64,000 nt of DNA from Psammoneis japonica (lineage: Eukaryota): positions 62,001 to 126,000 of the forward strand of contig QPGO01000190.1 of NCBI GenBank assembly GCA_008632985.1, written 5' to 3'. The notes beneath the pieces were generated by a model. That model had not been told where the DNA came from. It made no database searches and saw only the letters and a list, made by a program, of their open reading frames with translations. Below, in pieces: positions 5,643 through 63,600 of the stretch. Within the stretch, counting starts at the first letter, position 1, and the number at the start of each line of letters is the position of its first letter. Made by a program: the position numbers and the translations under genes.

Positions 5643-6082
5643 TGCATGCAGACAAAAGGTTATTTTGTCACGCCCTTTGTGACATTTAAAGGCTGCAACA
5701 CGTCACCGTGATGCATCAACTCTCATTGGCAGCTGTGTGTTGCACTCCTCCCCATGTGTCGCACGTCCATGCGGCTCTTTGCTGACGTGTGCTGACACTG
5801 CACGGTTTTGGCGGAACAGTGTGGGTACGTGCGAAGGAACATGCAGAACTGCACAGAGTTTTACGCGTTCGACAGTGATCAACGTTGCTGCAGACAACTC
5901 CCACTCAGGGTTTCGAACCCCTGGCCTCCTGCCCAATGGTTGCGATGAACCACTCCGCTGTGAATTCACAACGCAGCATGCATGCAGACAAAAGGTCATT
6001 TTGTCACGCCCTTTGTGACGTTTAAAGGCTGCAACACGTCGCCGTGATGCATTGACTCTTGTTGGTGGCTGCATGTTGCACT
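5643..6082. repeat. Pair of ~104-bp direct repeats (5643-5746 and 5979-6082)
   Basis: Ungapped alignment by eye shows 7 differing sites, all at pyrimidine-purine dinucleotides. Confidence 0.9.
5897..5968 (-). other. tRNA-like sequence (pseudo-tRNA or SINE head) with Pol III A and B boxes
   Basis: Minus strand reads CAGCGGAGTGGTTCATCGC (A box/D arm) ... CAGGGGTTCGAAACCCTG (B box/T arm). Anticodon arm and acceptor stem are poor. Confidence 0.6.
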
Positions 6083-20554: not shown

Positions 20555-21702
20555 TCTCATGTTTCCCAGGAAAACCCAAGCTTCTCCAGTTTTTCAATGC
20601 GTTCTCGGGGTCAAGCTGACCTTTTCTCCTTTGATTCGTTTTCTATATAGCTGCCGCTGTTTTCGGATCCAGTTCGCAAGCGATGGGTCTTTGGGAACAC
20701 TTCGACCACTGACCGGACCATTTATTCTTACAAATTCCGATAATCTCAGACATTTCTGCATCCAAGCGGCATCATAGGCATTCCAGATGAAATCAATCTT
20801 GTTCAACAACTCAATGCGTTCTTTTGACAACGAGACTGTTTTGCTTCCACCACCTTTTTCATTTGCTTTGAGAAGCCTAAAATTGAAGTCGTTGGTCATC
20901 CACCCAACGTCCGAGTGCAGGATTAGAATCGTGTGCTTTTGGAACCGAACTGAGATGCATGCACGAGACAATGGTGACAACAGTCAGCTCGACCCAACCC
21001 TCAAATGCGGACACCAACAACCAAAACAAATGCGAGTCTGGCAAACATTGCTCGCCAATTGCCGTGGTTGTCTCGACATCTGCAGAGCTCGTTGCAGCAT
21101 TCCATCCAAGACGCTTCGCGTGCATCCCATGTGAATTCGAGCTTGTTGAGTTGTTCAAGCCTTTCATCTGTCAAGGAGCATGGCTCACCCGCCATTCGTT
21201 TCTGGCAGTTTCGTCTCTGAAGGTGAACAAACTTTCCAAGAGGAGATGCACTTACATTCGGTGCAAGCGCACGTCCATGTTCTTTGTAAAACTGTTCGAG
21301 TTCTCGGCAATGCTTGTCCCATGATTGTTCGTGCATGTTCCACACAAAACCCACCAAGTCTAGCTGGTCAATCCGGTCTTCCGACATTGAGCCTGATCCC
21401 GATGGTGTTTGAGAGATTCGACACTGCGTCCTTAGGCTGTCCACCCAACGACCCAATTTAGGATGAGTTTTCGGCACATGGGCGTGTCCGTTTTCTCTCA
21501 CAAACTCTCGCAAGGCGTCCATGCAGCTGTTCCATCGAGACTTACGCAAAGTTTCCCGTGATGTCTTTTCTTCCGCTTGACTGGTCGACAGAAATCGATC
21601 AAAACTGTGGAACTGCGTGAAACCAAGGATGTTGCTCCCTCTCAACCTCACTGAGGATCTCTGAAACGAGGCAACGGATGCCGAAAGTGCCATCATGGTC
21701 AT
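20555..21702 (-). pseudogene. Helicase-associated (HA) repeat protein with about 4 repeats, partly mutated
   Basis: Repeated W......L..F...NGH..VP.....LG.WV...R......RI..L..+GF.W. Probable intron 20950-21055 and frameshifts near 20880 and 20605. The N-terminus ends in RFLST, like a mitochondrial presequence. Confidence 0.85.
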
Positions 21703-22869
21703 AGGGGCCTTCCAATATCACTAATAGGGCACGCTGTGGGTATCAGAAAAGGATCAAAGCGCAATCATTGAATATCCTCAGAGCTAGATATATATTTTAT
21801 GAAGAATTTTGAAATGACCGCGCGCGCGATCGAACTCCCTCCGAGAGCGAGCGAGTGTCCATGTGTGTCGCACGTCATCCATGCTGCACGTGAAAAATCA
21901 GAAAAATCAAAATGAAAATGGCAGATGGCAGCAGAGCACAGCCTGTGAGTAGAGAGGTGCAGTGACCAAGACGACACGCTCATCTGAGAGTCGAGGGTTC
22001 TTACACTGCTGCATCATGTGAATGGAAGCAGGGTCCACATTCTCATCTCGAAGCAACAGGAACTCAGGTGGGGGTGGCATGCAGGAGTGCGCCTCATGCC
22101 TCGTCATGACGGCCTTCTGAAGTGACAGAATGTGTCTGACCTCAGCCCTTGTTTTGAGGATGAAATGTGAACAAAAGGAAGAGTCCAAGTTTGTTGGTCC
22201 TCTGAGTCAGAAGCAAAGTGTGCTCTTTGGCACACGGAATTTTGAGATGATCAGACGATCACACTGATCTTCGGCTGCGTGTGTGATGTTCGACGAGTTC
22301 AATTTTGCGCGCTGATGGTCAACTGCCATTTCTCAATGACTTTGGAAGTCGTTGACCATGCTGTGATGACTGCTGTTGTGTGTTGCAAGCTCTGTTGAGT
22401 TGTCTCAGTCAATCTCTCAAGAGCTTTCATCATGCAAATGAAAGCATGTTTTCAAAGCTGCTGGTGTGGTTGCATTTGGAGTGGGTCATTGTTTGAGTTG
22501 GAATTTGTGAAGGTGCACAAGACTCCATGATGTGTGTCTTTGGGGAAACTGATGTGATGCATTGTTCCATGCAAGAATGGAAGAGCTTCATGCAAACCAA
22601 TGAGGACACTCCATGCTCAATGACGCAATGATGGGAAATGAAGAATCAACTGCAATCGCTCCCCTGAGAAGAATGAGTCACCCTCAAATCGTGGTCTCAA
22701 CACTCTCAACAACCAATCCTCTCATGTTGCTCTGAGTGACACTGCCATGACTGATCAGAGCTCCATCCTGTTGCTCTCACTGGCAAATTCTGGTGCGCAG
22801 CTTTTGTGCTGATGGATGACTCTGCTGATGAGGCATTTCCCCTCCACCTGATGACGACACTCACTTCAA

Positions 22870-24330
22870 TGACTTGAAAGACATGGACAGCAGCCCAACA
22901 GCCAAACCATCTCCCAGCAATGTTGGAAGTGTGGCTCCAAATGAGGCTGACCATTCAACCATTTCAGGAACACAATGGGGTTGCTGCCTGTTGGGATTTG
23001 CCTGCAGACCATCCGGCAAGAAGTCAGTTGCCCCATTGTTCAACAGCACCAAGAAGGCCCAAGAACCATCATTGTCACAGTGATGGTTGTTCCATGTCAG
23101 CGGAGGCTCTCAGAAGAAGAGATGTTTTTAATTCTCCTGCATCATCCAACATCTCCTGGAACAAACAACAACAAGCATCAGCCAGTGGGGAGCACTCTTG
23201 TTCAATGGCCGATGACTGTTCATCCGGCCACTGCAGTCTTGTTTCATCTTTGGTGACTCCCATCCTTCTTTGTTGTTGACTCCTTCGTTCTCACTCAAGC
23301 ATGGCTCATTGGAGCAAGAGCAACCAAAACTGTTTTCTGCATCACAGTCTCCAATTGTTCCCTGCAGCAAGGATGAACATGGGGAGATTTTTCCTCTGGT
23401 GACAGTCAGCTTGTGGGAGAAGAAAAACGCACTCTCTTCTGCTCTTCTCAGGGACAGGTGTGCCAGATCCAATGCTGAGACAAAAAAGTGGAGACTGTTG
23501 ATTGCACCACATTGCAATGGCAGAAGGTTCAGTGAAATGTTGGTGCCAGCAACTCTCATCACAACAAGGCAGACATGCAACTCAGAGAAAGTGCCATTTT
23601 CAGGAAAGAGCCTCTGCACATTTGGTGTCACACCACCCTTGCCGCTCCATGGCTGGATGCTGTTAGACAGAGAAGGTGCTTGAGACAATGTTTGCAAATC
23701 TGGGGCAGTTGCATCCTTGTCTGCAAAGCAGATCACAAATGTCTCCATGAAGTGGAAGAAGTGCACAGCATCAAGAAAAGCATCCAGTTGGTTGCAGCAG
23801 CAAGCCAGGGAGGAGCCCATTTCTGGCGGCACTTTGTTTGTGGTGTGGGACAAGGAAAACTTGCAGCAGCGGCAAAGTGCTTCATGTGAGGGTGCAGCTC
23901 ATTCTGTTTTTGATTTCACCATGACATCAAGGGAGCTGCAATGCAAGAAATCAGCAGGCCATGCCTTCACTGGATTTGATGTTGCATGATTGTCAACCTT
24001 TGATGCACTGAAGTCCAGGGATCTTGCAGCATCGTTGGATGGCTGTGGCCATGCTGTGTCACAATGACTGGGTTTTCAAGATGGATGGCATTCCAATCAG
24101 AACAGCCACCAGGACTCAGTCAGGAACCACTCCTTGTGAGGCTCTCACTGTGATGCACCAAATCACATGGGATGGAACTCTGCTCACGTGGATTTTTTTT
24201 TGGAGAAAGAACAACATGTGTCAAAATCTGGCACTGCCCATGCCAACACATCCTTGGCATCAGGTGGGTCACCAAGGCAAGCAATTGTTGGTGGGGTCCC
24301 CCCAAAGCAAATCTGTCAGAAGCTCACAAG
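22870..24330 (+). pseudogene. Degenerate SNF2-like ATPase fragment, copy A
   Basis: HGWMLLDREG, GGTLFVV.DKE.LQ..QSA, FDV...TFDALKS and MHQITWD follow the order of SNF2_N motifs I, Ia, Ib and II. Confidence 0.55.
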
Positions 24331-27300
24331 CTGCTGCTTTTGAGACAAGAGGGGGACAGGCATCCATTGCATGAGCTTGCAAGCCATGACCACCAAAAGG
24401 TGGTGCATGCCATGCCCACATTGCTCTGACTGCCACCAAAAGAGAGCAAAGAAGACACTGCTCTGGACTGGATTGAGCAGTGTTGCTCATGACCACCAAG
24501 AGCACTGTGGGGAATGCCTGGTGAGACAAGGCAATCGCAAAGTAAAAAATTTCCTCCAGCCAACAAGTGACAGGAGCAAGTGTCTGAAGTGGCAGAGTGG
24601 GAGAGAAAGCATTTTGTCAGTTGGTGGGAAGTCTCCTGTGTCACACAGCTTAGAGTGCCATGTGCAAGCTGAAAAGACTTCAAAGAACAGTGGATTGTTG
24701 ACAGCATGTCAACAAAGAATGCCCAGTGCATCAAAGTTTCTTTGCTTGTTGTGCGGCTCCATGCTCAGCATGCTTGCAGCTGTCACTCTCTTCTTTGCAT
24801 GCAGGAGTGACCATGACTCATCTCATGACCTCTGAAGCATGATGGTGCTGTCTTGAAAGCACACCAACAATGAATGCAAAAGGTGGCAATGGTTTGTGTT
24901 TTGGGTGCGTGTCCTTCTCGTGTGCATGTCCGTGTTGTTTTCTTTGTCCCTGTGCTTGACGTCATCACAGGACCCCATTTTACCTGTCAACCCAAGTGTG
25001 TGGACCACCTTTGGGACAAAGGGCAGCAGCATGGAATTGCATGGGAGGGTGCTGGTGCATGAGATGGTGCAATCAGCAGCCCGGCAAAAAAGCAGCCTGC
25101 AAACACGACCTGAGCGACAATTCAAAAGACACAATTTTCAGAAGAAGCAAGCTCCAATCAAGTGCATCCACAAAAAGTGTTGTGCTGCCTTGGCAAAAAC
25201 CTCTGCCTCTTTCTTGAGAGCAACATCTGCACAATGGGCACAGTCATCTCTTGCACGGCGTGTGATCCTCGTTCTTGCTCCACCACCCACATGCACATGG
25301 GAACAACATTGAGGGTGAAATGCCCAGGTGGCGCTGACATTTCTGTTGCAGAGCAAGACCAGCTCTCAGCATGTGGGCACTGCGTGATGCACCTCATTGG
25401 CAGAAATGCCTGTGTGAAATTCACCACTTTGGGAAAGCTCACCCCCGCACTTTTTCCAAGCAACAGCAAATGGTGTTGGCAACAGGTGCTGTGGACTTTT
25501 TGCAGAAAATCTTGTCCAGAAACAGCAGCAAGATTTGAATCTGATCCAGATCCAGCAGGCTGCTGGATCACTTGCTCTGATGAGCCTCGGTCTGCATCAC
25601 AGACATTCTCTCTTGGTGATGGCGTTTGTGGTGCAGTTTGTGGATTGTTTCAGCCTGACAATTGAGCATGGCAACAGGAATCCTGCAGCTGCATTGTGCA
25701 GACTCCAGCCATGGAGAGAATCTGAATGGTGTGCAGTGTGAGTGTGCTTGCAGTGGACAAGCTCATCTGTTGCACCAAGTGTGGTGTTGCTCCAGCACCT
25801 TGATCAGGCAACCCAGAATGTGGCCGCATTGGTGTGCTCTTGATTTGCACGCCAATTTCTCTGGCAATGTCTCTGACGGCTTTGTCCACTTGCTGAAGTC
25901 TGCCTTTGGGTCAGCATCATGGTTGGCGGGGTTGTCAATCATGATGGTTGACACAATGCCAACAGCTGTGAGCGCATCCAAGCATTGCCTGCTGGCCTGT
26001 TCCAGCTCCATCCAGGCGCACAGGTTCGATTCGCATCACTGGCCGTTTGGTGCAATTTCCTCCTTCAAAATCAAAAGGTGAGTGCACACAAACCTCATTT
26101 TTTTGTGTGCACTCACCTTTTAATTTTCGAAACAATCAAATTTGAAGGAGTTTAATGTGCCAAACTGTGCAGAAAATTGGCCTCTTGCATGATGGAATTT
26201 CTCATCACCTGGGGCTGGAACAGGCCTGCTGCACTGACTGCGGACTTGATGACCCCGCCCTTTTGCATTGGCTTTGATGTGCCCATTTTCTGGAGCTTGC
26301 ACCCAAAGTCTCTACAAAGTGATGAGCCACAGCCTTGGCAAGTCCCTGTCCCATCATGCCAGGTGCAAGAGATGATTTTGCTGTTGTGTCCACCATCACA
26401 ACAAATGTGGCCTTTTTGCAAAACAGAACAAATGTGGTGAGAAGAATGACACTTGGTTCTAGAGCACATTGAGGCAGACACAAAGTGTTCCCACAGAGCA
26501 CAGTTGTCACATTTGTCTTTGTCTCCGCCCCATGAATTGTTCTGCAACATGCCCAGAAGCTGCCACACTTCTCATTCACGCCACTCCATCCACACAATCT
26601 CCTCACCAAGCTGCACCTTCAATCACTTCATTGCTGGCAGCATCCAGTCTTGCCAGTTCAGGATCTTTCTCCCCCATCCACCGCTGGCAACCACAACAGC
26701 ATCTGGTTGTCCTTCATCCAATGTGCTGCCAACTCCCCCAACAAGATGAGTTGCAAGGTCAGCCAGCGTGGGGCTCTGACCAACGTGAGGGGAGTGCCAC
26801 AAAGTCACCCCCCCTCCCAATCAACACTGTGGTCTAATTCCACAAGATCTGTCCCCACAACAGTCATGCCCAAATGTCTTCCCAAATGCTTTGAATGTGC
26901 TTGTCCAAACATGCCCAACAATCCCAGCACCAAAGTGGCCACAGACACAACATCAACTGCCACCAAATTGCCTGGCAACTTCAGTTGGAAAGCACTGGAT
27001 TTGACCTCCCATCACAGTTTTTGTTTTTTTCATGATTTGTGCAACAACATCAAAACAAAACATGCAGAACACTGTGGCTTGCAAAGCTGCAATGCCACAT
27101 GAACTGAGCAAGAGTGGCAGCTGTGTTGGAGTTCAAAATGGAGCTGCCAGGTGAACTCCATCATTGGAGAAGAAATCTGGTGCAGGTCTGATGACTTGCC
27201 ACTTTGTTTGGCTGTGATCTTTGGAGAAAACATGCTGCTTTTTTGTGATTGGTGGTCCATTGGCAGCTTGCTTTGTTTTCCAGCACATGACTCTGCAGAG

Positions 27301-30300
27301 CATGCCATCAAATCACTGTTCTTTTGTTTGTCATTGGAGCAGTGAATCACCTTCACATGAAACCCAAATGCACCAAGGAGAACAAAAGCATTTGAATGTC
27401 ATGTCATGATGTGACTGACACAAAAAGCTGGGCCAAAAGAAAATTCTTGCCTTGCAGTTGGAGCAAAAGTTTGTTCTTCTAAACTTGGTTTGGCAGCGGG
27501 ATCAATTGTCTTTGCCTTGGCAGCATTGATGGTTGGAGTGAAAGTTGTGTGCAGCATTGCCTCCAATGTCTGTGGTGCAATGCCAGGAGGAAGTTTTGCC
27601 TGCTGCTCACATCCATCTCTTGCAACTTCAGCCACAAGGGCTTGACACCATGGTTTCACACACCATGTGTTGAAAGTCAGGGTCACCACCCAGTGGCTTT
27701 TGCACTGCATCTTGCTTGTGATGGACTTCGTTGGTGCAGCAATTTTCCAGGAGACACAGGTGGCTCATCTGCCCCACCTTTTTCTTTCAATGATGTGGTT
27801 TGTTCTTGAAAGTGCTCTTGCACAAAGATTTCTGCCACCTCCACCACTGCACACAATGCCCCTGGACTGTCCAGAGTGCTTTCAGCACAAAGCCCAAGGT
27901 CCATCCCACCAGTCTCCAACTGGGCAACAAGAGCATGTGCTTCTGGTTGACACAATGGATTTTGACAGATGAAACGCCCAGCTTCATTGGCCACGTGCTC
28001 ATGACAAAAATCAAGAGCTTGTTTGTTGTCAGCTCTTGTTGCACTCAATGCTGTGAGCACTCCTTTGGAAATGAGAACACCTCCAGCAGTCTTGCCCATG
28101 AGATTGGAGATCATCTCTTGGCCCAGCTTGAGCCAGGGTGCACACCATGCTTTTTGCAGTCATGGACACCCCATCAAAATGAGTCAAGGTGCAGCATTGT
28201 GCTGTGTGGCTGCTGCACCTTGTGGACTGGAGGCTTGCAAGCTGATCCATTCTTGTGTGATTTGCTGTAAATTCATTCCTGGTCCATGCTGTCTTTCTTT
28301 GCATTGGTGCAAAGCAATGCACGGACAAAACTTCTGGGCACATTGTTTTGAGACCAATTTCAGCATGTGGGCAGTGCATGATGAACTCCATTGGCAGCGC
28401 CGTTGTGAAATTGGCAACTTTTGAGAAAGGTCACTCACTTGCACTTTTCCAATGGCAAATGGTTGTGACCACCAATGGTGACAGGCACTGCAGAGTTTTT
28501 GCAGCACATCTTGCCTGAAACTGCAGCAGGACTTGGGTGCAATCCAGATCTGGCAGGCCAGATCAATTGCTCCAACAAGTCTCAGTCCAGCTGCACTGCA
28601 GAGATGTTCCCTCTTGGTGATGACATTTGTGGCACTGTTTCTAGATAATTTCAGCCTGACAGTTGAGCACATGGTGACAGTCTTGCTTGCATCCAACGGC
28701 CAACGGTGCAGACAAAAGAATCTTCAGCTTCGCAATGATGCAAAGAAGTGCTGTCACATGGCCAACACTGCTCTGAATCACTTTGTTTGTCAAGAGTTGC
28801 CAGAGACATGTCAGAAGACGAAGAGCCATCCATTGTGACTGCAGAGATGTCACCAGCATCCTGCTTTTTGGCAAAACATGCCAGTGACCACCACATTGGT
28901 GTGTTTGTGACAATGCAATGAACGAGGTGATGGCAGCAACCACTGTCAGTGGCAGTGTCAACTGTGCCTTTTGTGTGACAAACAAAGAAAGCAGCCAACC
29001 AGTCTTTGTCAAACAAGCATTGGAGTTTGTTGCTCGCCATTTTTTTGGCCCTGGTGGATTTCCCCTCACATGGGAGTGGGAGCAAAAAGAAGTGAATGTG
29101 TGCAATGAATGAGCAGCAAACCACCACCCATGTTGAGTGAAGCAAATGCCAAAAAGTGCGTCTTTTCCAACAATTCATTGCTCTGATCGCAAGCACATGG
29201 CTGCGGCAACAGATTTCTTTTGTGGCTTTGAATTGCTTGATCATGTCTTGGTGGATGTCAACACGGGTCAAGTTGGCAAGGATGTGGCCAAAGGTTTGCA
29301 GGGGAATTCATGGGGGGTTCAAGTTGGGTCCTGCTTGCAGACTCTGAGTGTGGCAGTGTGGTGCCAGCCACCAACCAGCCGGCTCCTCTGGCCAGCCAGA
29401 GTGGAGCTGGCAGTGGCAGCTCCAGATGGAGAGAGAGCGCAGTGACTTTTGCTTTCTCATTGACGTCTGCCAGCATGCCAGCAAAATGGCATCAAGAGCT
29501 TCAAAGCCATCAACGTCAAAATGTGAGCATGATGACTCTCGCTGCATGACTCCAGTGCCAGACTCTCTGCTTTGTGGCGCAGCTGCTCTTGACCCGTCGG
29601 ATTCTCTGGGAGCATTTTCTTCTTGAGCTGGCGTGTCTCAGCAAGTGACACACTGCTGTCACAGCTGGGAAAAATGGGTCCTTCACAAAGTCACTGTGCG
29701 TGCATTTCTCCAAAGCAGTGCGGGTGCAAATGGCACCCACACAGACACATGGTGAAGCACATCTTGCTCTTTGGTGCTTCTTGACATGCCGCATGTCCAC
29801 AGCTTTCTGGGGAGGCAGCCTTCCTTTTTGATGACATGACAACCTTCCATGGGACTGAATGGTCTTCTTGCAGAGTGTGACAAGTGAGTGGAGCAGAGGA
29901 TTGAAGAACTGCACAACAACTGCACACTCTCTGTTGGGTGCAACAGCATCTGTGGTCATGCATCTGCAAACAACAAAGCACTGAGTCAGTTGCAGCCGCA
30001 AGCTGGGGAGGAGCCCATTTCCAGTGGCACTTTGTTTTTGTGGCACGGGACAAGGAAGACTTGCAGCGGTGGCAAAGTGCCCTGTGTGAGGGTGCAGCTC
30101 ATTCTGTTTTTGATTTTAAAGCATCATTGCCAAAGGAATGGCAGCACATGTCAGCAGGTCATGCCTGCACTGGATTTGATGTCATGTTGTCAACCTTTGA
30201 CATGCTGAAGTCCAAGGATCTTGCAGTTGCACTGGACAGCTGCGGCCATGCTGTGTCACAACAACACCAGAGTTTTCAACACAGATGGAGCTGCTCATCA

Positions 30301-31640
30301 TGAGGCTCTTGCTGTGATGCACAAAATCACATGGGACAGAGTTCTGCTTGTGGACGTGTTTGGGAGAGTCAAGAAAACCTGGCACCACTCATGTCAAGGC
30401 ATCCACAGCATTAAATGGGTCACCAAGGTGAGTCACCATGAGTGGGGTCTCCCAAAGCAAGCCCATCAGAAGCTTGCAAGCTGCTGCTTTTCACAGACTT
30501 GTTTTCTTTTCAAGACAGGAGGGGGGGCAGGCATCCATTGCATGAGCTTGCAAGCCATGACCAAAAGGTGATGCAGGCTGTGCCCAAGGTGGCTGCTCTG
30601 ACTGCCACCAAAAGACAGTGAAGAAGCACCTGTTCTGGACTGCATTGCAGTGCACAAGGATTTGTGACCATTCACAACCAAGAGTCATGCTGTGGGGAAT
30701 GCCTGGCAAGACAAGACAATTGTCAAGCAATGAACTTTCTCTGATCAATGAGCAACGGCAGCATCTGAAGTGGCAGGATGGATGAGAGCACATTTCATTG
30801 GTCGGCAGAAATTGGTTCAAGACAAAGCTCTCCTTTCACGCAGCTTGAAATGCAGTGTGCAAGCTGAAAAGGCATCAAAGAACAGTGGATCAGCAGCACG
30901 TCAATGAAAAGTGCTCAAGGCATTGATGTTTCTTCACTTGTTGCATGGTTCCATGCTCAGCTTGCTTGTGGCTGTCACTCTCTTCTTTGCATCCAGCAAC
31001 CATGATTCATTTCACAACCTCTGCAGCATGATGGTGCTCTGCCCCAAAGCATGTCAACAACAAATGCAAAAGGTGTTGATGGTTTGTTTTGGGTGTGCGC
31101 CCTTCTCATTTCTCGTGCACATCTGCTGTTCCTTGTCCCCATGCTTCACATTGTCATGACCTGGAGCACATTGAGGCAGACACAAAATGTGCCCACAGAG
31201 CACAGTTGTCACACTTGCCTTTGTCTCTCATGAATTGTTCTGCAACATGCCCAGAAGCTGCCGCTGCTCATTCACACCACTCCATCCACACAATCTCCTC
31301 ACCAAGCTGCACCTTCAATCACTTCATCACTGGCAGCATCCAGCCTCACTGTTGCAGGATCTTCCCCCCCCCCCATCCACTGCCAGCAACCACAACAGCA
31401 TCTGGTTGTCCTTCATCCAATGTGCTGCCAACTCCCCCTGACAAGATGAGTCGCAAGAAGGTCAGCAGTGTGGGGCTCTGCTGACCAACATGAGGGAGTG
31501 CCACAAAGTCACCCACCCCGCAACCAACACTGTGACCCAACTCCACAAGATCTGCCCCTGCAACAGTCACACCCAAATCTCTTCCCAAATGTGTCAACAC
31601 TGCTCATCCTGGCAGACCCAATGACCCCAGCACCAGTGAG
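23780..31640. repeat. Internal segmental duplications within block 2
   Basis: 23780-24960 resembles 29985-31150; 26458-26930 resembles 31162-31635; 25495-25680 resembles 28495-28685. Confidence 0.85.
29300..30480 (+). pseudogene. Degenerate SNF2-like ATPase fragment, copy B
   Basis: Paralogous to copy A: RDKEDLQRWQSAL, GFDVMLSTFDMLKSKD, MHKITWDRVLLVD. Confidence 0.55.
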
Positions 31641-33541
31641 GACATGTCATCATCTGCCACCGAGGATGCCATTGTGCACCTGACAATTTCAACTGGAAAG
31701 CTTGATCGATTTTCATTCTCCCATGTCAGACACAAAGACAACTTGTTTGACTCCTCCTCAGCAACTCCAACCCCACCAAACTGCAGTCAGTGCACTGCCT
31801 TGCATCTTGAAAATCCCAGACCATTGCACAACCTGGAAACCAGTGTGTCTCAAAGTTCCACCACACTCTCACCCACTTCTTGTCCACCACACACAGCCAT
31901 CGTGAGGAAATGACAATTCTGTCTCTGTTCATGGGAAGGCAAGAGCAAGGTGAGTGGATGAAGTGCAAAAGAAAAAAGAGCAACACATTGCACAATCATG
32001 ACAGAACACACACACCTCACTCTGCAACAAAGCCGAACGTGCGGAAATGTGAAGTGATCAGTCACTTTGCTGGCATCGTGGGAAAGAATGCCGACAGATG
32101 CGACGTTGGCACGCCGACACCAATGACTTTTGGTGGAAGGCACACTCGCTGCATGCAGTGGGTGTTTAGCCTTCATCCAAATGCAAAAAGTCCTTTTTGT
32201 GCATTGCATTCAGCCAATTCGATGAAATGGTGCCAAAATGACGCACGACAAACAAAGGCACGTATGTTATGGCCGCAATAGCCACGGAACGCCTCGTATC
32301 TCGTTGCGCTAAATCATTCTATCTAAGTTAAGGTACACTTCTAAAAAATGGACATGTTTCTCTCACTCTACTAGAGAGTATTTTAAACTGTGCGAGGGGA
32401 TAATCTAGCTACCGGTAGGCCCGACTGTAGAGTTGATTGCTGCATGCCGCGTTCACCACCCACCCACCCGTCAACATCATTGCTTGAATGATTTTTTGGA
32501 TGCTTGTTTTGATTCATGATCTTTTTACCAAGATAGATCGAGAGTTTTTTCTTTGTTCGGCAGGTGTCAGTACGAATTCACGAGCCGGCAGAAACACCAC
32601 AACAAAAACAACAGCACGACTCTCTCCTTTTTATTGGCAGGATCCAGTGCGCATAAGCGAGCCGGACACATACCAAACAAGTCAAGAGTGCTAACACAAA
32701 TCCAATGTGAATCCATACGTCGTATAATGAGTCAAAAACATCTACAGAAAAAGAGTGTCGTCAGATAGATGATCATTCGCAACCCTTGATCGTGGTGTCA
32801 GTCTCGCATCTGCTTGACTCATTCGCAGATGAGCCACTTACCATCAATAGACAATACAGGCACGCAAGAAATTGTCAATGTTATTGTTGGTATGATTTTT
32901 GGGGAGCTTCTTTTGATTCAAAAGGGACTGTAGGGCACACCGCAGCGCCATTATGGTACGATGAAGAAATCCGATTGCAGCAGAATGGGGCAGATGTAGT
33001 CAGGAAACTATCAGCTATCATTTGTCCTTGGGGTGCTACCTGGCTCAGAAACCTCTGTATATGAGTGATAAAGACGACCATACCAAAGAAAATGAGTGAC
33101 ATAATACATAATGAAACAAAAGCGCAATACTGTACGATTCGATCGCGACAGACAGAGAGAAAATGAGTATCGAATCGTGGTGCAATTACAAAATCCATGT
33201 TTTCATCTTACAATTGGCTGATTACCTTCAAACAAGCAACATAAGTTGATTCTATATGATAGTAAAGACTAGTAAATAGCGTTGATATTGTTGAAAGGAT
33301 TGGCAACAGTCTATTAAACGCCGCTCCGATTCTCATGGTGGGTGTTGTTTGAGGAAATTTGTGCAGACGTGACTGAATGAGTCCCGTCTGACTTCGCGTG
33401 ATGGCCTTGGGGTTTTCATGCGGCTCAGTACCTTTTTCGCGCGAATTTTCGCGTGATTTTACACTCCCCATCGTTCGTGAATCACTTGGTACACATTGGC
33501 ACGCCTTGGCACGCTTGTCCACGAACCACTAAGTACTAAAA

Positions 33542-36426
33542 TACACCCTGGCTACGCAGTGTCCCGTTTGTCCACAGGTGTCCAAAAAAATTCAAAGCAA
33601 AACGATGGAGAGTATAGCTCGAGGACCGAACCGGACCTCGCCTACTAGTAGGGCCCTACCTACCGGCGTACGGTACCGTACCGTACCTACCCGCACGACG
33701 ACGACCCCTCCAGTTGCTGTTGCTGCGGAGCTTATTGTTGTTGCTGTTTCTTTCTCTCTACTCTAGAGATCGGTACTCTACCCGACAAAACTGCAAAGTG
33801 TGAGATGAAAGGAATACATTAGACGTGCATTTTGGTTGAAGCCTCGAGATGGATCATCGCTCAATCAAACAGCCAAGGTCAGAGGCGGCCACGACAGTTG
33901 GTGAGCAGGTATTTTCCAACTTCCAACGTGCTTGAATGTGCTTACACATCGCCTCACTTTCTCTTTCATCCTAAAAATATCTGTTGCTTCAGTCTATCGA
34001 ACCGGAAGAAAAGGGACCTAAGCCTACCAAGCCCACAATAACAAAAAAGAAGCAGAAAAAGTCGAAATAATCGGCAAAGAAAAACAAGAACAGCAACGAA
34101 GAGAAAACGTCCTTGTCTTCAAGAGTATCGTAAGTATCGAGAGGGAATATCACGCCTTGCCTAAAACTTTAATCTTGGTTGTGCTGATGCTTCATCTCCT
34201 CTCTGCACCTTGTGTTGGTATTCAGCATGGCAACAGCCGACGGGCAAGCAATGGCTCAGGTGCTGAGTACGTTTAATCGCATGGAACGGGTTCGTTTTGA
34301 ACCTCTCATGACATCTGATTCTCCAATCCCTCACAAAATTCAACGCGCCGCAAATGCTCAACAACTTTTCTCGAAAGACACAACCCGCACGATACATAAT
34401 ACAGCAAAACATCAATTTGAATCATGGCACCGCAATATTGCAGCAAGAGAGTCCCTTTGACGAGGTGGAAATCAGCAATGGAATATTTATGGAGTCAGGA
34501 ACGGATAATGATGTCTTTGCAAACAAGTCTACTACTCTGCACCAGCATCTGAAAACAACGAGACTACATCCTTTTGGAGACACCGCAAGTTTCACATCAT
34601 CGCCGTCGTGGCGATTGTGATTGGAGGTTTCGTCATTCTAAGGGGTAGTGCCAATCCCAATGCTCTCTTTGTTCCTGTTGATCCACCCGGCAAGGAGAAA
34701 GCGGATCGTTGGGATGCCACGTTGGGATTGCGTTTGCGTGTCGTGAATGCATGCAGTGACGGCGAATGGACGGCTCTGTTTGATGCTTCCCTCAGTGATC
34801 GGAATTCAGATCCATCGCTGCAATTGACGCCGATTCGATCGACACATGATCCGGTTTGTCAACCGGAAATGAAACGACTCAAGGTTTTCAATGGCAATTA
34901 TGGAAATACGGATTGGCAAGGACTCAATGCGATTTTGTTGAGACGAGAAGTGATTGTGTGAAGTACGGTACGACTCAATTATGATCAATCCATGGATAGT
35001 GAGCGAAAGTATTATAATGTGAGTGTGATTAATTTGCTGAGCTTGCTTGGTTGCTTGTGTATCGTGGCTTTTTGGGTGTATATTTTGGTGCTTGTTTGGC
35101 GAAGTGTTGGTATTCTTTCGTCTCTCAAAACGTTCACCTCACCCGTCTACTCTTACTCGATAATCCATCAATTGTAATTTTGGTTTTAGGAGCCACGAAT
35201 AATTGGGTCAAGGATTTGGTTTGCCACATTCCGACGAAAATCATTTCAACTTTGACCGAGAGGATTTCATGGATTACACAACCCGGCCCCGTTCCATCAA
35301 ACTGCCGGGACAGCACAATTTTTATCTCCTCAAAAAGATCCATGGTTCGCCCGACGAGCCACTTGTGTTTGGTTCCGCTGCCGATGTGAGTTGTACTACT
35401 TTGGAAACTTCCGTCCCAATCGAAATGGCAATACTCAATGAATGGACACCCTTGTGGACGAGTCCGTGAACAATAGCACCACCAGCACTATTGTACAAGA
35501 ATCATCCGAAGAAGAAGAGTCGGATGAAGAATCAAGTGACGAGGAGCCTGTTCCAATGGATATTCAACAAGCGGCACTTGGACAATATCTCTGTGCAAGG
35601 AGGATCATTGTACCGCGTTTTTAGGACGAGATTATCGAGTCGAATTCAACAAGTTACGATTCTAACTAACGCTCGCCTACTATAGTAGAGAGTAGAGAGC
35701 TCAATCAACGACGACTCCCTCCAAGTTGAGTGCGAGTTGCTGTTGCTGGTAGTTGGAGCGGAGGTCGTTGCTACTCTTGCTGCGTTGCTTGGTTGTTGGT
35801 GCTGTTTCTGGCTAGAGATACGGTACTCTACCCTACAACAACTGTGAAGTGTGAGTTGAAAGGAACACAATAAACGAGTATTTTGTGTGAAGCCTCACGA
35901 TGGATCATCGCTCAATCAAACGGCCAAGGTCAGCCACGACAGTTGGTAAGCAGGTATTTTCCAACTTCCAACGTTGTTGAATGTTCTTCGTCAAAAGGAA
36001 TGTCAAAGATCTGTACACGTCGCCTCACTTTCTCTTACATCCTTAATATCTGTCGCTTCAATCTATAGAATACCCCCCGCTTCAACAGCTGTTTCGACGC
36101 CTCCTTCTGCTGTTCCTCACGTCGCTAAACTCTGTAATTTCTTACTTATTAGAAAACTATGAACTACCAGATAAGTAACTAACAGTGTTTAGGTATAGCC
36201 GAATGGGGAACACCATAATGAAATGCTATACGATTCTTACTGTCTCCGGTACCTACAGCACGTAGCTTTCTCTACCGGTAGAGAGCATTGTTCTTCTAAG
36301 TAATCGCGTGACTAGGACATTATACTTTGTCACATAAGTACACCCTGGCTACGCAGCGTCCCGTTTGTCCACACGTGTCCAAAAAAATTCAAAACAAAAC
36401 GATGGAGAATAGCTCGATCGAGGACC
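33542..36426. repeat. Two duplicated non-coding modules flanking the 34.2-35.6 kb gene relic
   Basis: 33542-33626 resembles 36339-36426 (TACACCCTGGCTACGCAG...), and 33763-33998 resembles 35811-36066. Confidence 0.85.
34228..35624 (+). pseudogene. Hypothetical protein, multiply frameshifted
   Basis: Chain of protein-like ORF pieces (34212, 34354, 34608, 35203, 35442) with an acidic tail. No family recognised. Confidence 0.45.
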
Positions 36427-36443: not shown

Positions 36444-39400
36444 CACGACTCCAAGTTGAATACACAGTGCCACACGCAGACACAAAATGGCGGTGCTGAA
36501 AGCGGGAAAGCGTCAAGCTAGCCCTGCTTTGGATTGCTTGCCATGGAGCTCAACATCTGCAGCTACAAAAAGTGATGGCAACAGTGTCAGGGAGGACATT
36601 TCAGGTGTTGGGAACATGGTTGTGACCGACAACAGAGCGAAGAAATGAACTTTAATTTGTGTCTCTTCAACACAAGCAAAGATGGCGAGGTTCTAGAGGC
36701 TTGCACCTTACACCAAGCACACATGAATCAAAAATCAAATGAAGAGTTCCGTTGAGTGTTGAAGCGCCAAGAGATGTCCACATCCAAGAAACTGGGACGA
36801 GAGGCACGGCGAAACAGAGCAAGAAACAAAAGCGAAGCACGCAAACAAACACCATGCTCGGCACATCATGAGTCCTGTGGAGGAGGAGGAGAGAGGAGAC
36901 AAACCCACACCTGCAATCAACTGCCTTTAGAATGCTTCAAACCATGGGACACTGCCAGTCTGACTCATCTTGAGCCAAGGCAAAAGGCCCTCTAAAACTC
37001 TGCAGACATTGCAGCTTCGGTTTCGATTCTGTCCGAAAATGCAACGACTCCGATTGAGATTGATGTGTGCCCACCAACTGTGCCAGTGGTCCAGAGGTTT
37101 GAGACTTTCTTGGCAAGAGTTCTTGCTGGGTTTCCTCTTGTCATCAAGACTGAACACATTTGCGGTGTGGAGAGAGTGGCACTTGCAACTCAGAATTGTC
37201 CACAATGAAAGGACATGGAATGTTCTTTGAAAGTTCAATGGGAGAGCGGAAAATCACTGTGGCAGAAAGAGAACAACTGTGTTTTTCTACATGACAGCAT
37301 GGCATGAGTCAAATGCTTGTGTGACATCTTTGTTGAGGAGACAGCCATGATTGCCAGAGCCAGCCAAACAGCTCAGGGTCATTCCTGTCATCTTTTGCAT
37401 GTTGAGGCACCAGATTCAACCACTTTCGATTCTGGCGCACACACTGCGGCGGTTGTGAATGGCTCAAAGGCTCACAAACTGACTGACAACCATGCCACAG
37501 ATGTGGCTGTTGAGGTGCTGGATGCTGGATCCTGTGGGCCGCATCTTTTTTCTAAAAAGTGCGAAGTTCACCGTTGTTTGTTGGCAGTGGGGCTCCAGGT
37601 TTGCCACATTCGTTTCGACTTCCAGCTCATTTTACAAGCCTGCAAGTGCAAGCAGTTCCATTGAAACAAGAGTTCGCAATGCCATGTGTGAGGCGGAAGC
37701 AAAATTGCAGCGTGACTTTGCCAAGACAAGACAGCGCCATTCTTGTGTGTTCGACATTCATTCAGCACTTTGGCATGTCAAACCCCAGTCCCAGGTGTGT
37801 GAAATTCATGCGCCACAGCTTTTCGAAGTGGGGCATGCAAAGCCAGGGAAGTTGCGTTTGGTGCAGGGTGCTGTGGAGATTTGGCTTTGACTGCAGCTGC
37901 GATTGTTTTGGTCACGGGTCGACTGCACCTTTTCTCGATGCGGATTCTTCTCTTGCTTCAATCTGTGAACCAGTGCTGAGAGTGATTGTCAATGTGATTT
38001 GACAATGCCTTGGTCTTGGGTGTTGGCTGTGGCACCAAGTGCGCCATTTCCATTCCTGGCGCATGCTGCGAATGAGGTTGGGTTGAGGCTGCTCCTTGCT
38101 GGGCTTGATTTGAGTCCAAAAATGGTGGAAATTGCCAAATGTCAAGCTGTGTGGTTCTTTGGGAACGTGGTGATCAGCATGAGATTGCCGTGGTCAATGC
38201 CGAAATTGCAGAGTGTGTTCTCAGAAAAGAAAAGCCTGTCGATTGAGACACATTGGCCTGTCCAGGTGCCTTTGACGGAGTTGTTGCAAATGATTGCTTT
38301 GAAAAATTCTGCAATGCCGGCAAGTTCGGTTGACATTTGTTGGCATGGCTTGTGTCAGTTTTGCATGCACGACACTTCCAACCAACATCAGTTTTCTTGT
38401 CTTTCAGATTCTCTCATGTCGGCCCTTGCAGAATGCTTTCAAGTGAATGGGGTCATGTTTGTCACTCACCCCCTTGGCGCTAGCTTTGTTTTAAAGTCAC
38501 ACACAGAAGATGAAAGAACTGGTCCAAATCTCTTCCAAAGGAATGAATTTGAGAGACTCACAAGTGGCCAATTGTTGAGAGCTTTAGAATTTGCCAAAAA
38601 GGTTGGATTTCCGGACTAGAATGAAAGGACAAAGGTGGTGTGTGTCTGTTTTGCAAGTGCAGAAAAGGTGGGTTGCTGACGCAAAATGCGTTGTGGCTGG
38701 ACCCCATTCTTGAGACATCTGTTTGAGGGATCTGCCACCCGTGCTGCGAGATTGCTCAAATGCTTTGCATGCTGTGACGGCCGGTGCTCTCTCTCTCTCT
38801 TTCCTGCTCCCAGTTTGAATCTCCCTCAACAGGTCATTCGCCTTTTGTGTCTGCACAATGGCATTGCATGGAGGCTTGGACCATGTCCTTGTTCGAATCT
38901 GAGTCTCCGCGAGAGATTGGCTTTTAACAACGCCCACATTGATGGAAGCGACAGTTTGTTCTTGTCACGCCACGATCTTGACAATCGCCGCCAACAATTC
39001 TGAGGATGCCTGGAACAAAGCTGCAGATCCGTGATGACGTTTGCGGATGACATCAGCTGTTGATGGTGTGTCAGCTTCTTCAAGTGCTTCAGTCCTGAGA
39101 GTGATGCCATGCAACTGTTTTCCGATTCACCGCAGCCATGTCTCTCAATGTGCTTTGCGAGGCATCGGCATCCACAGAGTTCATTGCAGTTGCATTGATG
39201 ACAATGCCAGCATTGCGTGTTGAGCACATTGTGATGAGATTGTTTCTTGCTTCCATTTCTGCAAGTCTGTGGCATGAGACGAAAATTGTTTGGATTTTTT
39301 TTTCTGGTGTGATTTCTACACGTTTCTACACAAAGCGATGGTCGCACTTCGGCTTGTCCCAGGACGCTGTCAAATGCTGCATTTCCTTCAACCAAGTGTC

Positions 39401-41050
39401 CTGCATTCTTTGTTGGTGTCTCCTTGACTTGCCCATGGTGAGAAACTGCAAGTTTCGAGATTGTGTCAACAAGACATTCCTGTTGGCAAAAAAAAGGTCC
39501 TGTTTTTTCGCCCCAAGTTTTTGAGTTAGATGCTCAGATGGGAAAAAGTGTCGAAAGGTGCAGTTTCTTTCACTCAGCAGGAAGCCAAGACAGCAGAGAA
39601 AGTGTCTGCATGCTTGAGTTCACAAGTGTTTTTGTCTTGGAAGTGCCTTTCATGGCCTTTCCAAGATGACACAGAGAACGAGGCGACAAATGAGCGATCG
39701 CCAAAATGGAATTTCCGTTGAGCGACACACTTGCAATCACGCGCATGCCGACCCATGTGATTCACCAACAAGACACAATGCTTTTGTCTGATGACAGATT
39801 CCTGATTCCCGTGATTTTCAATGAAAATGCACGCGGAAACGATTTTCACAATTTTCGTCTCGCACCACCTTGAGAACAAAGGAAATGCTGCTGCGCGGCA
39901 CACCTGATGCTTGCTCCGAGCATGACGCCGTGAACTGGAAGATTGTTGAGCAGGGGTCTTGCTTTTGCCCCTGGGTTTTGGTGGAGAGTTTTTTTTTGCT
40001 CGCTCTGTGGGCCTGAGCCAGGGCAGCTGTGCCCAAGGAGGGGGATGCCGCACTGCTGAGCTTGCCTTTTACACCACTTGGCAGGGTTTTGTGCCCTTTC
40101 TCACCTCAGATGCCATTCACTCCTTTCTTGGTTTGGCCTCTTTTCAATTTTCTTTTGCACTCAACAATGCCACACGGTGTTGACTTTGGCAGGTGACAAA
40201 ATTCTCTGGCCGATCCACCCCTGTCCTGCGGGAAGGCACATCCACAGTGTCATTGACAGAGTCACGGTTCCAGGCCTTGCTTCCTTTTTTCATGTCTCAG
40301 AATGCTCTCAACACCAAGGATTGTTTCGAACTGGAGTCAGAACCCGGTTCACATCATGCGCAGTCACAACAATGAGCTCAACTGCACCAAGTCGAATCCA
40401 GCATGACCCCATCCAATCACCACAATCATCCGTCATTGTGAAATTTTCAATCGCAAGCATTGAACGAAAGAACAGCATCATGGACACTGAGATGCTCCTC
40501 GTCAACCTGCGAATGAAAATGCTCAATCAGACGGATGACATGTGGTGCTCCACAATCGGGGTGTCAAACCGTCGACACAAAACCCTCAATCTCATGCAGC
40601 ACAGAGGTTCTGAAAGTCGAACATGGGCTGTGAACAAATGCCAGACAGAGTCCAAACCCGAGCTTTCAGTTCCTCCATGACACGAGACAGAGAACATTGC
40701 TTCTTTGAGTCGACGGTGATTGTGGTGGCAGCAGGAATCACACAGGCATTGTCTGGCTTGGACGCAGAAAGCACAATGTCAGCAAAGCATGCAGCACAAG
40801 CCGCAACCTTCGTTCTTGCCCCGCGAAGCAACCCTCCTGACAATCCTCTGTTTCGATGAATTGTGACCAGAGCGAGTGATGTTCAGATCAGCTTTCCCTT
40901 TCAGCGACATGCCAGGAATGCGTGGGTTCTACATGAATCCCAGCACACGACCCATTTCACGATTGTGCTGATCAGGTTTTGCCGAGGTTCTGTGTGCGTG
41001 TGGGCGCGCGAGGGAGCGTGCGAGAAACTCAAGTGCGGGTCCCGCTCGTG
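36444..41050. other. TpA-depleted hypermutated block 3 (CpG partly retained)
   Basis: TA is rare and ORFs are nearly Tyr-free. The block begins near CACGA (36444) and ends near TCGTG (41050). Confidence 0.85.
37900..38619 (+). pseudogene. Class I SAM-dependent methyltransferase, disrupted
   Basis: LGVGCGT (motif I, other frame), then FPFL...LAGLDLSPKMVEIAK and NGVMFVTHPLGA. Confidence 0.7.
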
Positions 41051-41304
41051 ACTACTTTCATCGACGTCTGTCAATCTGTCAGCGAAATCAGCAACCGTTG
41101 TCGACACAAAATGGCGGTGCTGAGAGCTGAAAGCTACCGGTACAAGTTGTCCATCTCAGTGTGAAAGATCAGAGCACGCTACTGTAAAACGGCATTAATA
41201 TTCGTGGGGCAACTCTCTGTGTGAATGGGTTGTCGGGACAACGTACAATACGTTTAATGAAATAGAATTGCTACCTGCTACCCGCTACCTACAACCTACA
41301 AACC

Positions 41305-50305: not shown

Positions 50306-50307
50306 CC

Positions 50308-60699: not shown

Positions 60700-63600
60700 G
60701 CTTTGTGATGCAGGCTTTCGGTTGTCGCTCAAGGGTGACCAACACTGTCTCAATTTAATTTTACCCGACTTGACCAAAACAATGGCCAGTTGCTGGGGCA
60801 TGGACGAATGCTGTCAACGGATTCTTCAGCACCGGTGCAAAAAATCTGTGTAGTGCAAAGTGGTTCTTAAAAACTTGAAGTCTGCAAGGTGCTTAAAAAA
60901 CAAAGGAAATGCTGCTGCACCGCACCCAATGCATTGTTGTAGAAATCCGTGAACTGGATGATGGGTGGTTGTTGGGCAGGCGCCCTGCGTGTGTTTGTCT
61001 GGTTACGATCTGCCTGTTTTCGTGTGAAGAGGACATGGGTTAAATTCCATGGACATTTGGGCGCAACTTTAGAGTGGCACTTGAGACGACACGACACAAT
61101 GTGCCTTGCATTTTCCATCATCATTTTCACAATGCCAGTGTTTCCCTTCATGTTCGAAACCATGAGTGCGGTTTGCTTGTCACAGTCAGCACCATCCTGT
61201 CAAATCCTTGGTCACACATGGAGGAATCGCAGCCGTGTCACCCCAAGATGCGGTGGCAAACAGCGGTCTGGTTGCACGACAATCAAGCAGCTTGCTTGCT
61301 TGTGTGCATCTGCCAAATCCTTGACTGCTGTGAGTGACTTCTTTGTCCATTTGTGCTGAGCTGGGACACACGGCATTTTGTCGCATTTGGCGACATTTTC
61401 TTAAATGAGTTGATGATTTGTCGTGAAAAGACGTGAATTGCGACAAAATGTCCGGGTTGGCGACAAACGGGACAGAAACATTGTTCAATTGAGTTTTAAA
61501 ATGATCAATGTCATTTATGACCAACCTGCACTTTGGCGATGTCGTTTCAACAAGCGGGGCAATTGACAGAATTTGGCGGTCGATGTCATCGACGAAAATT
61601 CATCCGACAAATTTTGTCGCGGACATCCGACAAATTTGTCGGATGTCCGACAAAATTTGTCGGCATGCAACACGACAAGACACAACATGACACGACACGA
61701 CAAGACACGACACGACACGACACGACAAGACATGACACAACAAGACACGACACGACACAACACGTCACGACACGACGACTCACGACTCACGAACGAAACA
61801 CCCACGCCCCCCGCACACACCAACCGCTAACGTCTCCGTTGACACTGTGTCTCTTTTGCATGATGATGCAAAGCGACGATCATGCCGCTCTCGGCGGTCT
61901 CCAATGTTTCATCCACAATCTCGTGGAGACGGCACGTCCACACGACTGGGCACTTCTGAATGTTGGGGAGCGTTGCATTATCGGCATGTCGCAAACGTCC
62001 GTCTGTCGGCGTTTGTCGGCTCTTGTTGGCGTTTGTCGGCTCTTGTTGGCATTTGTCATACGTTGTCGGGGTTTGTCGGGGCTTGTCGGGGTTTGTCGGG
62101 GTTTGTCGGATGCGACAAAATTTGTCGCACGTCCGACAAAATTTGTCGCACGTCTGACAAAATTTGTCGCATCCGGCAAAATTTGTCATTGACAAGTGCA
62201 GTCTTCGCCGAAAGTTAAATTCATCACATGGCACTGCAGTTGACACAACGTTTGTGTTTGGGACACGCCATTGCCAATTAAATGATGTTTTTGTCTCATT
62301 TATCGCCAACGATTGAAATTTGTCTCAAAGGGCGTTTTTCACGACAAATCGTCCAATTCATTTAAGGGAATGTCGCAATTGGCGACAAAATGCCGTGTGT
62401 CCCTGGTCTGGAAGCATGGAACAAGCCATGCCTCACTTCAATGTCATGCGTGGACCCTGCACGGCATCGAGCACATTTGCTGAAAGAAAACACAGCCCAA
62501 ACGCACCACTGTGACTGGCTCTCTTTAGAGACGGGCTTTTTTGGCCAGCTCTGGTCATCCTGAATGACTCGTTGTCCACCCTTTCAGGTTTTGTCATCAA
62601 AATGAATCTCTGGAATGTGTCCCACAAAGTTGGCCACTGCAAAATCATCGTCAGACAGATCTGATGCGGACCCACCCTCTGTTTTCAATGCAGTGCAAAA
62701 ATGAAGATTTAGGTGCAACAGCGGACCACAGTGGGGTGAGGCAGAGGACACCACAGGGCAACCACAGGATTCTGCTGTGCAGAGATTTGATTTTTCGAAA
62801 CTTCCCTCTGACACACCGTGCGTGCATGATGTTGGGGCATGCTGCAAACACACACCATCCCACATGCCATGCCACCAGCAAATCAAAATTGACAAGACAA
62901 ACCCCCATGCTGCACTGCACAAACATTTGCATTTGCCAGCAGTGGCAACAATTTCCATCTGCAATCTTGCAACAGAGAGTGGCGCAAATGCACCTTCTCA
63001 GCACTTCTTGTTTCTCTGCTGAAATTCTGTTTAAAAAAGTTTTGCTGGGTGCAAAGTCAAAAATGAGCAGACAAGTCTTCACTTGCTGCCACAGTGTGCT
63101 CGCTGTGATTCTTGGCATGGTGTGTGGAACAATGGCTCGACTGACAACTGGATGAAAATTTCAGTTCAGCAGAACCACCGCACAGTCAAAAGAAAAGAGT
63201 CATGCCACACCACCACAGCAAAAGAGCTGCTGACAAAAAGACAAACCCAAATTAAATGCTGCAAAGCAACAGTGTGCATTGAAAAAGCACATCATCCAAA
63301 ACAAGCCTCTTTCAATTCACGACGTGACACCACGCAATGTCCCAACATGTCACAGACACAAACATGATGTGCGGTCTCTGGCCACAGTGCCAGATTCTTG
63401 GCTGCCAGCCACTCTGGCTCCTGGCAGTCTCAGCACCACTCCAAGGCCCACCATGCCAATGGCTGGCTTGCCTTCAATTTCTTGTCCCTTTGGTGGGCTG
63501 GACACTTTCTTGATGGTTGGTCAAAACATGAGAGGTGTGGATGAGTCCAAATGAGCAACTGTCCAGCGCGGCTCATTGCCAAAGACCAACACAAAGCTCA

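Follow-up and report, generated by a model that had tools for sequence, protein, structure and literature searches.

Introduction

The mutational process described here appears to have its closest counterpart in Bigelowiella natans, where hypermutation at TpA dinucleotides hits integrated DNA of nucleocytoplasmic large DNA viruses and virophages; the preprint that reports it (bioRxiv 10.64898/2026.01.13.699255, 2026) gives, in its accessible part, 231 mutations, and proposes, though it does not show, an ADAT2-type deaminase as their cause. The rate of new mutations there is raised about 1000-fold, with the process active in some of the lines only. We analyzed a stretch of 64,000 nucleotides from the diatom Psammoneis japonica (GenBank assembly GCA_008632985.1, contig QPGO01000190.1, positions 62,001 to 126,000, forward strand; henceforth the window, with positions counted from its first letter), and in it one block, 21800-32263, from which TpA (TA) has almost vanished. 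The sites at which TA persists in this block, and the direction in which the others have changed, are the subject of this study. As far as the accessible text of the preprint allows a comparison, the two systems agree in that A changes to G and T to C at TpA, on both strands and almost exclusively by transitions, leaving clusters poor in TpA and rich in CpA and TpG; in both, the edits are confined to defined regions of foreign or repeated DNA, which here are sharp blocks made of repeats and duplicates. They differ in that the targets here, in a diatom, are duplicated host genes and miniature inverted-repeat transposable elements (MITEs), that CG is lost along with TA, and that editing extends weakly beyond TA. 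The Bigelowiella system is described as strictly TpA; here TA dominates, yet AAY has become AGY at 45 of 206 sites in old copies (Y, pyrimidine; R, purine), and 231 mutations may be too few to reveal such an effect. The accessible main text of the preprint, its motif panel (Figure 2B) excluded, contains no rule for the bases flanking TpA.

Several enzymes with related preferences are known. The fungal Tad2-Tad3 pair, which edits A to I in mRNA, ranks the base preceding the target (position −1) as U > A > G > C and prefers A or G over U or C at +1 (PMC4817773, accessible part); the order at −1 is the same as the one we find, but the substrate there is RNA and the preference at +1 is reversed, being for a pyrimidine here. 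E. coli TadA and its engineered derivative ABE7.10 convert A to G on DNA, act best on TA and prefer the motif TAC, features that recall the process in Psammoneis; according to the same source, ABE7.10 acts on the single strands of R-loops, with the order TA > CA > AA > GA and a smaller effect of the 3′ base (PMC8065034, accessible part), whereas we find a different order at −1 and a larger 3′ effect. Polymerase eta, in the A:T phase of somatic hypermutation, likewise produces A>G changes at WA (PMC2213188, accessible part). The process here is unlike it in that TA is changed far more than AA, that changes are nearly pure transitions, and that they do not run along one strand. The fungal process of repeat-induced point mutation (RIP) makes TpA from CpA and mutates both copies of a repeat. 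RIP resembles the present case in that dinucleotide-specific transitions ruin repeats; here, however, the process takes TpA away and leaves the partner copy intact.

In the literature searched, where subscription papers were mostly beyond reach, we found no diatom report of TpA hypermutation and one report of targeted A>G mutation of chromosomal DNA, the Bigelowiella preprint. The useful results here are the strand-resolved motif and the observation that about half of the informative residual TAs are themselves new.

Residual TAs depart from composition

In the window, normal DNA with a ratio of observed to expected TA (o/e) of about 0.6 (0.57-0.66 in the four long normal segments) alternates with sharply bounded blocks that are nearly free of TA, poor in CG, and contain CA and TG at about 1.8 times expectation. 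The block in question is one of these:

21800..32263, TA- and CG-depleted, CA- and TG-rich block (o/e: TA 0.028, CG 0.22, CA 1.84, TG 1.85), with 19 TAs counted within 21900-32200

The motifs quoted in a preliminary description of the stretch are all present in the block: TTTTAATT at 23129 and 26121, GTTTAATG at 26153, TTTTAAAG at 30117, CATTAAAT at 30412, GTTAGA at 23664, AGTAAA at 24543, CTTAGA at 24651, TTTACC at 24981, TCTAAT at 26835, TGTAAA at 28268, CTAG at 26460 and 28642, and CTAC at 26313. That description had noted that most residual TAs carry a 5′ T or a 3′ A, and had taken this to reflect the context preference of a mutator. The skew is real and beyond chance: 15 of the 19 sites have a 5′ T or 3′ A, against expected shares of 0.36 from the contexts of TA in normal DNA (p=0.00015), 0.46 from the TG and CA contexts of the block (p=0.005) and 0.50 from local Markov composition (p=0.019). 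TTAA accounts for 5 of 19 (expected 0.04-0.09; p=0.0006-0.02 across the nulls), YTAR for 12 (p=5e-6 to 0.004), and RTAY for none (p=0.0008-0.02).

The skew recurs outside the block. TTAA makes up 27 of the 85 residual TAs in the window's deep blocks, and 95 of 259 at loci outside the window, which belong partly to the same repeat families and where ATAT is absent. We also drew a blind sample of 20 stretches of 10 kb, picked regardless of content and divided into 399 tiles of 500 bp, of which 164 hold three TAs or fewer. Residual TAs in this sample (n=202) comprise 53 TTAA, 123 YTAR and 3 RTAY, compared with 132, 452 and 786, respectively, among the 2639 TAs of its normal tiles; TTTAAA is the top six-mer of the sample (18 of 202); in another count it amounts to 44 of 343 residual TAs. 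An artefact of composition is thus rejected. The patterns among paralogues would also speak against an artefact of assembly.

Direction of change identifies the target as TAY

A 5′ T on one strand is a 3′ A on the other, so counts of residual TAs cannot separate the two; the direction of change can. This direction was read from an unedited source of the block on another contig (C248, locus L034; described below) over 5672 gap-free columns. There, 255 source TAs have become 111 TG and 106 CA, with 3 kept, and 308 source CGs have become 127 CA and 123 TG, with 24 kept; source CA and TG are mostly retained (CA at 379 of 455). Two MITE-like families were added to this pair for the estimation of rates, taking the TA-rich copy as ancestral. 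Each has a member in the window:

61361..62405 (+), copy of the 1.1-kb MITE-like family A, outside the block
39269..39871 (−), copy of the 600-bp MITE-like family B, outside the block

Locus L123 (identical in pattern to L122), four duplicate loci of family A and columns near gaps were dropped, and the unedited sides of L102, L089 and L088 were left out of the rate fit. The 656 isolated TA observations from the two families comprise 492 transitions, 4 other changes and 160 sites kept, with 246 sites now TG and 238 CA; editing at TA is thus by transition in more than 99% of cases, and TpA>TpG and TpA>CpA are about equally frequent (111:106 of 255; 246:238 of 656). Several copies of the 600-bp elements (39269-39871 and L122-L132) have TTAA at their ends, which we take to be a piggyBac-like target site and which forms a minor source of TTAA in blocks.

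The preliminary description had suggested an enzyme or repair step preferring VTAB, which amounts to a 5′ T shielding its strand. Counting positions from the A, with the T of TpA at −1, the strand with T at −2 is in fact the one more often edited, by 39:21 in the block and, in three further data sets, by 107:44, 72:23 and 40:18; when each source site is given a single vote, this strand is the edited one in 76 cases of 101. A pyrimidine at +1 likewise marks the strand more often edited, in all four data sets (125:43, 68:34, 92:38 and 82:42) and, with single votes, in 129 cases of 172 (p=4e-11). The same dependence appears in A>G changes outside TA (AAY 45 of 206 against AAR 12 of 314; GAY 22 of 229 against GAR 11 of 249; CAY 9 of 266 against CAR 0 of 336), and is lacking in the reverse change, G>A (AGY 14 of 233, AGR 19 of 268). 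Ranked by strict A>G change (AAY about 0.22, GAY about 0.10, CAY about 0.03), the base at −1 follows the order T > A > G > C.

We modelled retention and direction by likelihood over 1167 observations, taking bootstrap medians over sites; the rates at +1, relative to A, are 6.3 for T (95% 3.8-10.7), 3.8 for C and 2.2 for G. At the outer positions, again relative to A, T at +2 gives 3.4; C, T and G at −2 give 0.49, 0.42 (95% 0.23-0.75) and 0.28; and the other bases at −3 give 0.23-0.40 (T 0.23). T at −2 is thus slower than A, but not slower than C or G (ratio 1.12, 95% 0.56-1.49). With the flanks included in the model, the negative log-likelihood falls from 1059 to 922. The fastest context is AATATT, the slowest TTTAAA. 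Positions +2 and −3 barely affect direction and strongly affect retention (share 0.28 for TTTAAA, 0.04 for ATTAAT and 0 of 133 for CTTAAG), so that this outer pair may act roughly symmetrically, as an effect of duplex shape would. The residual shares of 136 six-base classes can be predicted from the rates obtained in the paralogue alignments (Spearman −0.58), with an approximately 80-fold difference between the fastest and slowest fifths, which bears out a context-dependent mutator. Its target, as these statistics show, is T-A-Y, helped by upstream A and slowed by a 3′ A. The motif VTAB fails on the direction counts and on the rate of T at −2, and its V lumps CTAG, whose density in depleted relative to normal tiles of the blind sample is 0.10, with ATAT (0) and GTAC (0.02). 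Protection of TACG by a methylated neighbor is hinted at by family A sites 977-1164, but other TACG sites are edited.

Half of the informative residual TAs are new

The TAs left in the block had been taken for survivors, with TTAA, protected on both strands, as the commonest of them. Its overrepresentation holds, its survival and protection only in part: none of the 7 TTAAs of the source is kept in the block, and 4 of the block's 5 TTAAs (23129, 26121, 30117, 30412) have no TA in any aligned homologue. Nor does a 5′ T shield its own strand, as the direction counts show. For 23 of the 85 residual TAs in the deep blocks, a homologue with less editing could be aligned; 3 of these are uninformative, 10 have TA there (32167 only in its near-identical duplicate), and 10 do not. 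Four sites in the block are true survivors, and about half of the informative residual TAs are new, judging from the aligned copies. The sites concerned are:

23129..23130, residual TTAA; TG in the unedited source, probably a new TA
26121..26122, residual TTAA; in 14 homologous copies CG 8, TG 4, CA 2, TA 0
26153, residual TTAA; TA in 3 of 14 homologous copies
26460, residual CTAG; TG in the unedited source, probably a new TA
30117, residual TTAA; CA in the unedited source, probably a new TA
30412, residual TTAA; TG in the unedited source, TG and CA among aligned homologues, probably a new TA
24543..24544, 26313, 26835 and 28642, true survivors, with TA in the source

New TAs arise with a bias of their own. 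Source TCA has changed to TA or TG at 20 of 147 sites, against 22 of 424 for the other xCA (odds 2.9, p=0.0015), and such a TCA-biased C>T change yields new TAs preferentially as TTA or TAA. In young, partly edited copies, TTAA is kept at 45 of 104 sites, CTAC/GTAG at 24 of 53 and GTAC at 35 of 97. The residual TAs thus reflect slow removal balanced against biased creation, and make TTAA look better protected than it is.

The block is an edited duplicate of host DNA

To judge from its alignments, the block is mostly a rearranged and partly doubled copy of an unedited diatom host region on contig C248 (L034), which has normal TA and intact open reading frames (ORFs); TA o/e in the source partners is 0.43-0.82. 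We saw no viral origin in 21800-32263, the source being host DNA. Its parts are as follows:

22613..24615 (+), duplicate of a diatom gene (weak SNF2-related domain), edited and broken; 75-76% identity to its unedited source at G000:C248, about 85.2-87.3 kb (L034), source TA o/e 0.52-0.73
24760..25999 (+), edited duplicate of L034:3342-4562, which follows in the source; 73% identity
25995..26233, MITE-like element of about 240 bp with terminal inverted repeats, between two adjoining source segments; holds 2 of the block's 5 TTAAs (26121, 26153)
26229..26944 (+), edited duplicate of L034:4555-5261, a stretch also present on C305; 79%
27647..28320, edited duplicate of a stretch with a COQ7-family ORF in the source (L034:8245-8733; also on C112)
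29490..29965, dispersed repeat; its copies on C75, C98, C9 and C24 are edited
29966..31107 (+), part of the SNF2-like gene region in a second edited copy, duplicating about 23777-24967 of the same block
31161..31753 (+), second edited copy of about 26459-26941

Homologues of the SNF2-like gene match SNF2-rel_dom only below the cut-off. Named homologues of two genes of the genome are found in Attheya and Cyclotella, and in Seminavis, Cylindrotheca, Pseudo-nitzschia, Nitzschia and Amphora. The blocks consist of repeats and duplicates. Long spurious reading frames are to be expected in them, because all stop codons but TGA are erased.

Editing tracks genomic position and runs ahead of CG loss

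Three copies, L102, L089 and L088, show a clear boundary within the element: one end is edited and the other is not, and it is the edited end that borders on TA-depleted flanking DNA. Unedited sites cluster (77 against a null of 65.9±2.9, with a maximum of 76 in 379 samples), at least partly on account of domain boundaries. Three family A copies, L107 (C43), L090 (C74) and L108 (C1), retain 51-54 TAs within TA-depleted flanks, as expected of insertions younger than the last editing, which makes them usable as a clock. Processive tracts on a single strand are rejected, since neighboring edits fall on the same strand no more often than by chance (295 of 582 against 300±9, p=0.75), though accumulated old events could hide short patches.

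TA and CG are lost together, at different speeds: in 14 edited copies, 494 of 692 TAs are edited against 156 of 1278 CGs lost, and the two co-vary over 21 copies (rho 0.85). At 1000-6000, 36711-41135 and 60394-62500 of the window, TA is lost and CG mostly kept (CG o/e 0.5-1.5); these are younger domains, in which TA editing runs ahead of CG decay. Diatom repeats form CG-methylated islands (PMC9998398, accessible part), and TA editing and CG decay plausibly share methylated domains.

The right edge of the block falls within a 4.6-kb stretch, 31752-36336, that has a near-identical duplicate or allele on G000:C175 (L041/L042). Of 37 substitutions between the two, 26 lie in 31760-32003, many of them swaps among TG, CA and CG, and 11 in the remaining 4.3 kb; this suggests independent recent editing at the block edge.

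Proposed mechanism and alternatives

We consider it probable that adenine deamination operates in silenced domains, and that the TAs left are slow survivors together with new TAs. An enzyme acting in silenced chromosomal domains would turn the A of TpA, whichever strand carries it, into G, presumably by deamination of adenine to hypoxanthine followed by replication. It would require T at −1, with A as a weak second choice, and would act about 2-6 times faster when +1 is T or C than when it is A; A at −2 and −3 and T at +2 would help, as the fitted rates show statistically, and the symmetry of the outer positions points to a reading of duplex shape. Hits pile up independently on both strands until TAs run out; CG decays more slowly in the same DNA, probably through deamination of 5-methylcytosine, as diatom biology suggests. 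TAs in old blocks would then be survivors in slow contexts plus new TAs from TCA-biased C>T and G>A changes, both of which enrich YTAR. A far-reaching version of this mechanism, doubtful as yet, would make it a natural editor of adenine in DNA: a deaminase that works on the double-stranded DNA of chromosomes, takes its guidance from silent chromatin and not from homology, and recognizes the shape of the duplex (fast at AATATT, slow at TTTAAA). Such an enzyme would be common to diatoms and chlorarachniophytes, would have rewritten about 40% of the genome, and would form a mirror image of RIP.

Several observations weigh against adenine deamination in silenced domains, or limit what carries it. 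The unedited reference copies L111 and L112 each adjoin one depleted flank, and are unedited at that end. Among the best candidates scored, we found no dedicated enzyme: the 9 matches to PF00383 and 4 to PF02137 (2 genes) look like housekeeping proteins. From sequence, A and its paired T are not separable as the altered base. The rates derive from 408 source sites, and MITE sites enter them through more than one copy; the patterns of W and L100 and of L088 and L085 are 94% and 92% alike, and polarity assumes that the TA-rich copy is ancestral. TAG is edited about as often as TAC in MITE copies (32 of 54 against 171 of 276; 48 of 71 against 34 of 51). Lastly, young copies differ modestly by tetramer, so that TTAA is not uniquely resistant and the skew of old blocks needs amplification over time as well as biased creation.

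Among the alternatives, it is unlikely that a polymerase eta-like enzyme makes errors while filling repair patches in methylated DNA, inserting G opposite T after T or A. This would account for A as the second-best base at −1, as in the WA rule (PMC2213188, accessible part), and for the covariation of TA editing and CG loss; yet TA is edited about 20 times more than AAY in young copies (TAC 171 of 276, AAC 12 of 373), TA loss is about 6-fold ahead of CG loss, and strand runs are not seen. Polymerase eta makes transversions as well, and more than 99% of the changes here are transitions. Quite improbable, too, is the proposal, by analogy with methyltransferase-linked RIP, that the change begins at the T of R-T-A, or at a methylated A, by a route of modification and then misrepair. 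TAY on one strand is RTA on the other, so that the two are formally equivalent; the genome has 27 C5-methyltransferase-like matches, and diatom DNMT4 is related to RID (PMC9998398, accessible part). Against this, the Pfam matches are cytosine methylases. We also know of no chemistry by which a T adduct would yield a clean T>C change.

The remaining alternatives are each highly improbable. That all residual TAs are ancestral, with a 5′ T shielding its own strand in a VTAB motif, would fit the presence of a 5′ T or 3′ A at 15 of the 19 residual TAs and the slowness of T at −2 (0.42) and −3 (0.23) relative to A; it is contradicted by the direction counts (76 of 101), by the equality of T with C and G at −2, by the loss of all 7 source TTAAs, and by the 10 of 20 informative TAs that have no TA in the homologue. 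A mutator blind to its flanks, with all skew arising from where new TAs form (TCA>TTA, slippage in T/A runs, TTAA sites of young insertions), could draw on the half of informative TAs that are new, on the TCA odds of 2.9 and on the TTAA ends of family B. Strand choice, however, depends on the flanks in four data sets, the likelihood gains from flank terms, and the rates predict residual shares; creation of new TAs is therefore contradicted as the sole cause and stays as a contributing one. There is, lastly, very little to recommend a RIP-like mutation triggered by homology between paired repeats, even though the blocks are made of repeats and duplicates. CA is not turned into TA (CA kept at 379 of 455, TA o/e 0.028), and the partner copies are untouched: the source L034 is unedited, as are the eight copies L114-L121, though their window copy is edited. 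Moreover, 32004-36336 has a near-identical copy on C175 (11 differences; it may be an allele) and TA is normal in both from 32264, and block boundaries cut through elements.

The TAY motif is a fingerprint by which candidate enzymes can be ranked on AATATT versus TTTAAA, and it can be compared with the 231 mutations of Bigelowiella to ask whether both lineages share one system. Counts of residual motifs alone mislead, and blocks of this kind distort both the ages of repeats and the calling of genes.

Candidate genes and other features of the window

The deaminase matches presumably represent a dCMP deaminase and TadA-like, ADAT2-like, RibD-like, guanine-deaminase-like and ADAT1-like proteins, labels that we assigned partly from known motifs; an ADAT2-like exon is at L138, and the ADAT2-like and TadA-like candidates lie on C26 and C38. 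The deaminase ORFs scanned, which are partial, contain no chromatin-reader domain. At L137 (C79:87006-90176), a deaminase of the CDA fold is fused to a 2OG-Fe(II) oxygenase in a 491-aa frame, and L153/L154 (C79, about 344.5-345.4 kb) hold a second gene of the A_deamin family, a candidate besides the ADAT1-like gene on C40. The C5-methyltransferase-like matches include L142-L151 and matches on C297, C301, C10 and C28; 3 of 9 measured loci are in TA-depleted DNA (L147-L149), several with stops, hinting that mobile or duplicated methyltransferase genes have been edited in their turn. A chromodomain is weakly matched by an ORF at L150.

Elsewhere in the window, unedited frames of PPDK and of the tubulin-tyrosine-ligase family occupy 44221-46797 (+) and 57864-59618 (+). 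A frame with a helicase-associated (HA) domain, 21001-21717 (−), lies in a TA-poor, CG-normal stretch at the left edge of the block, and an exact direct repeat of 142 bp (48595-48736 and 50775-50916) flanks a tandem array with a period of 178 bp at about 49578-50647.

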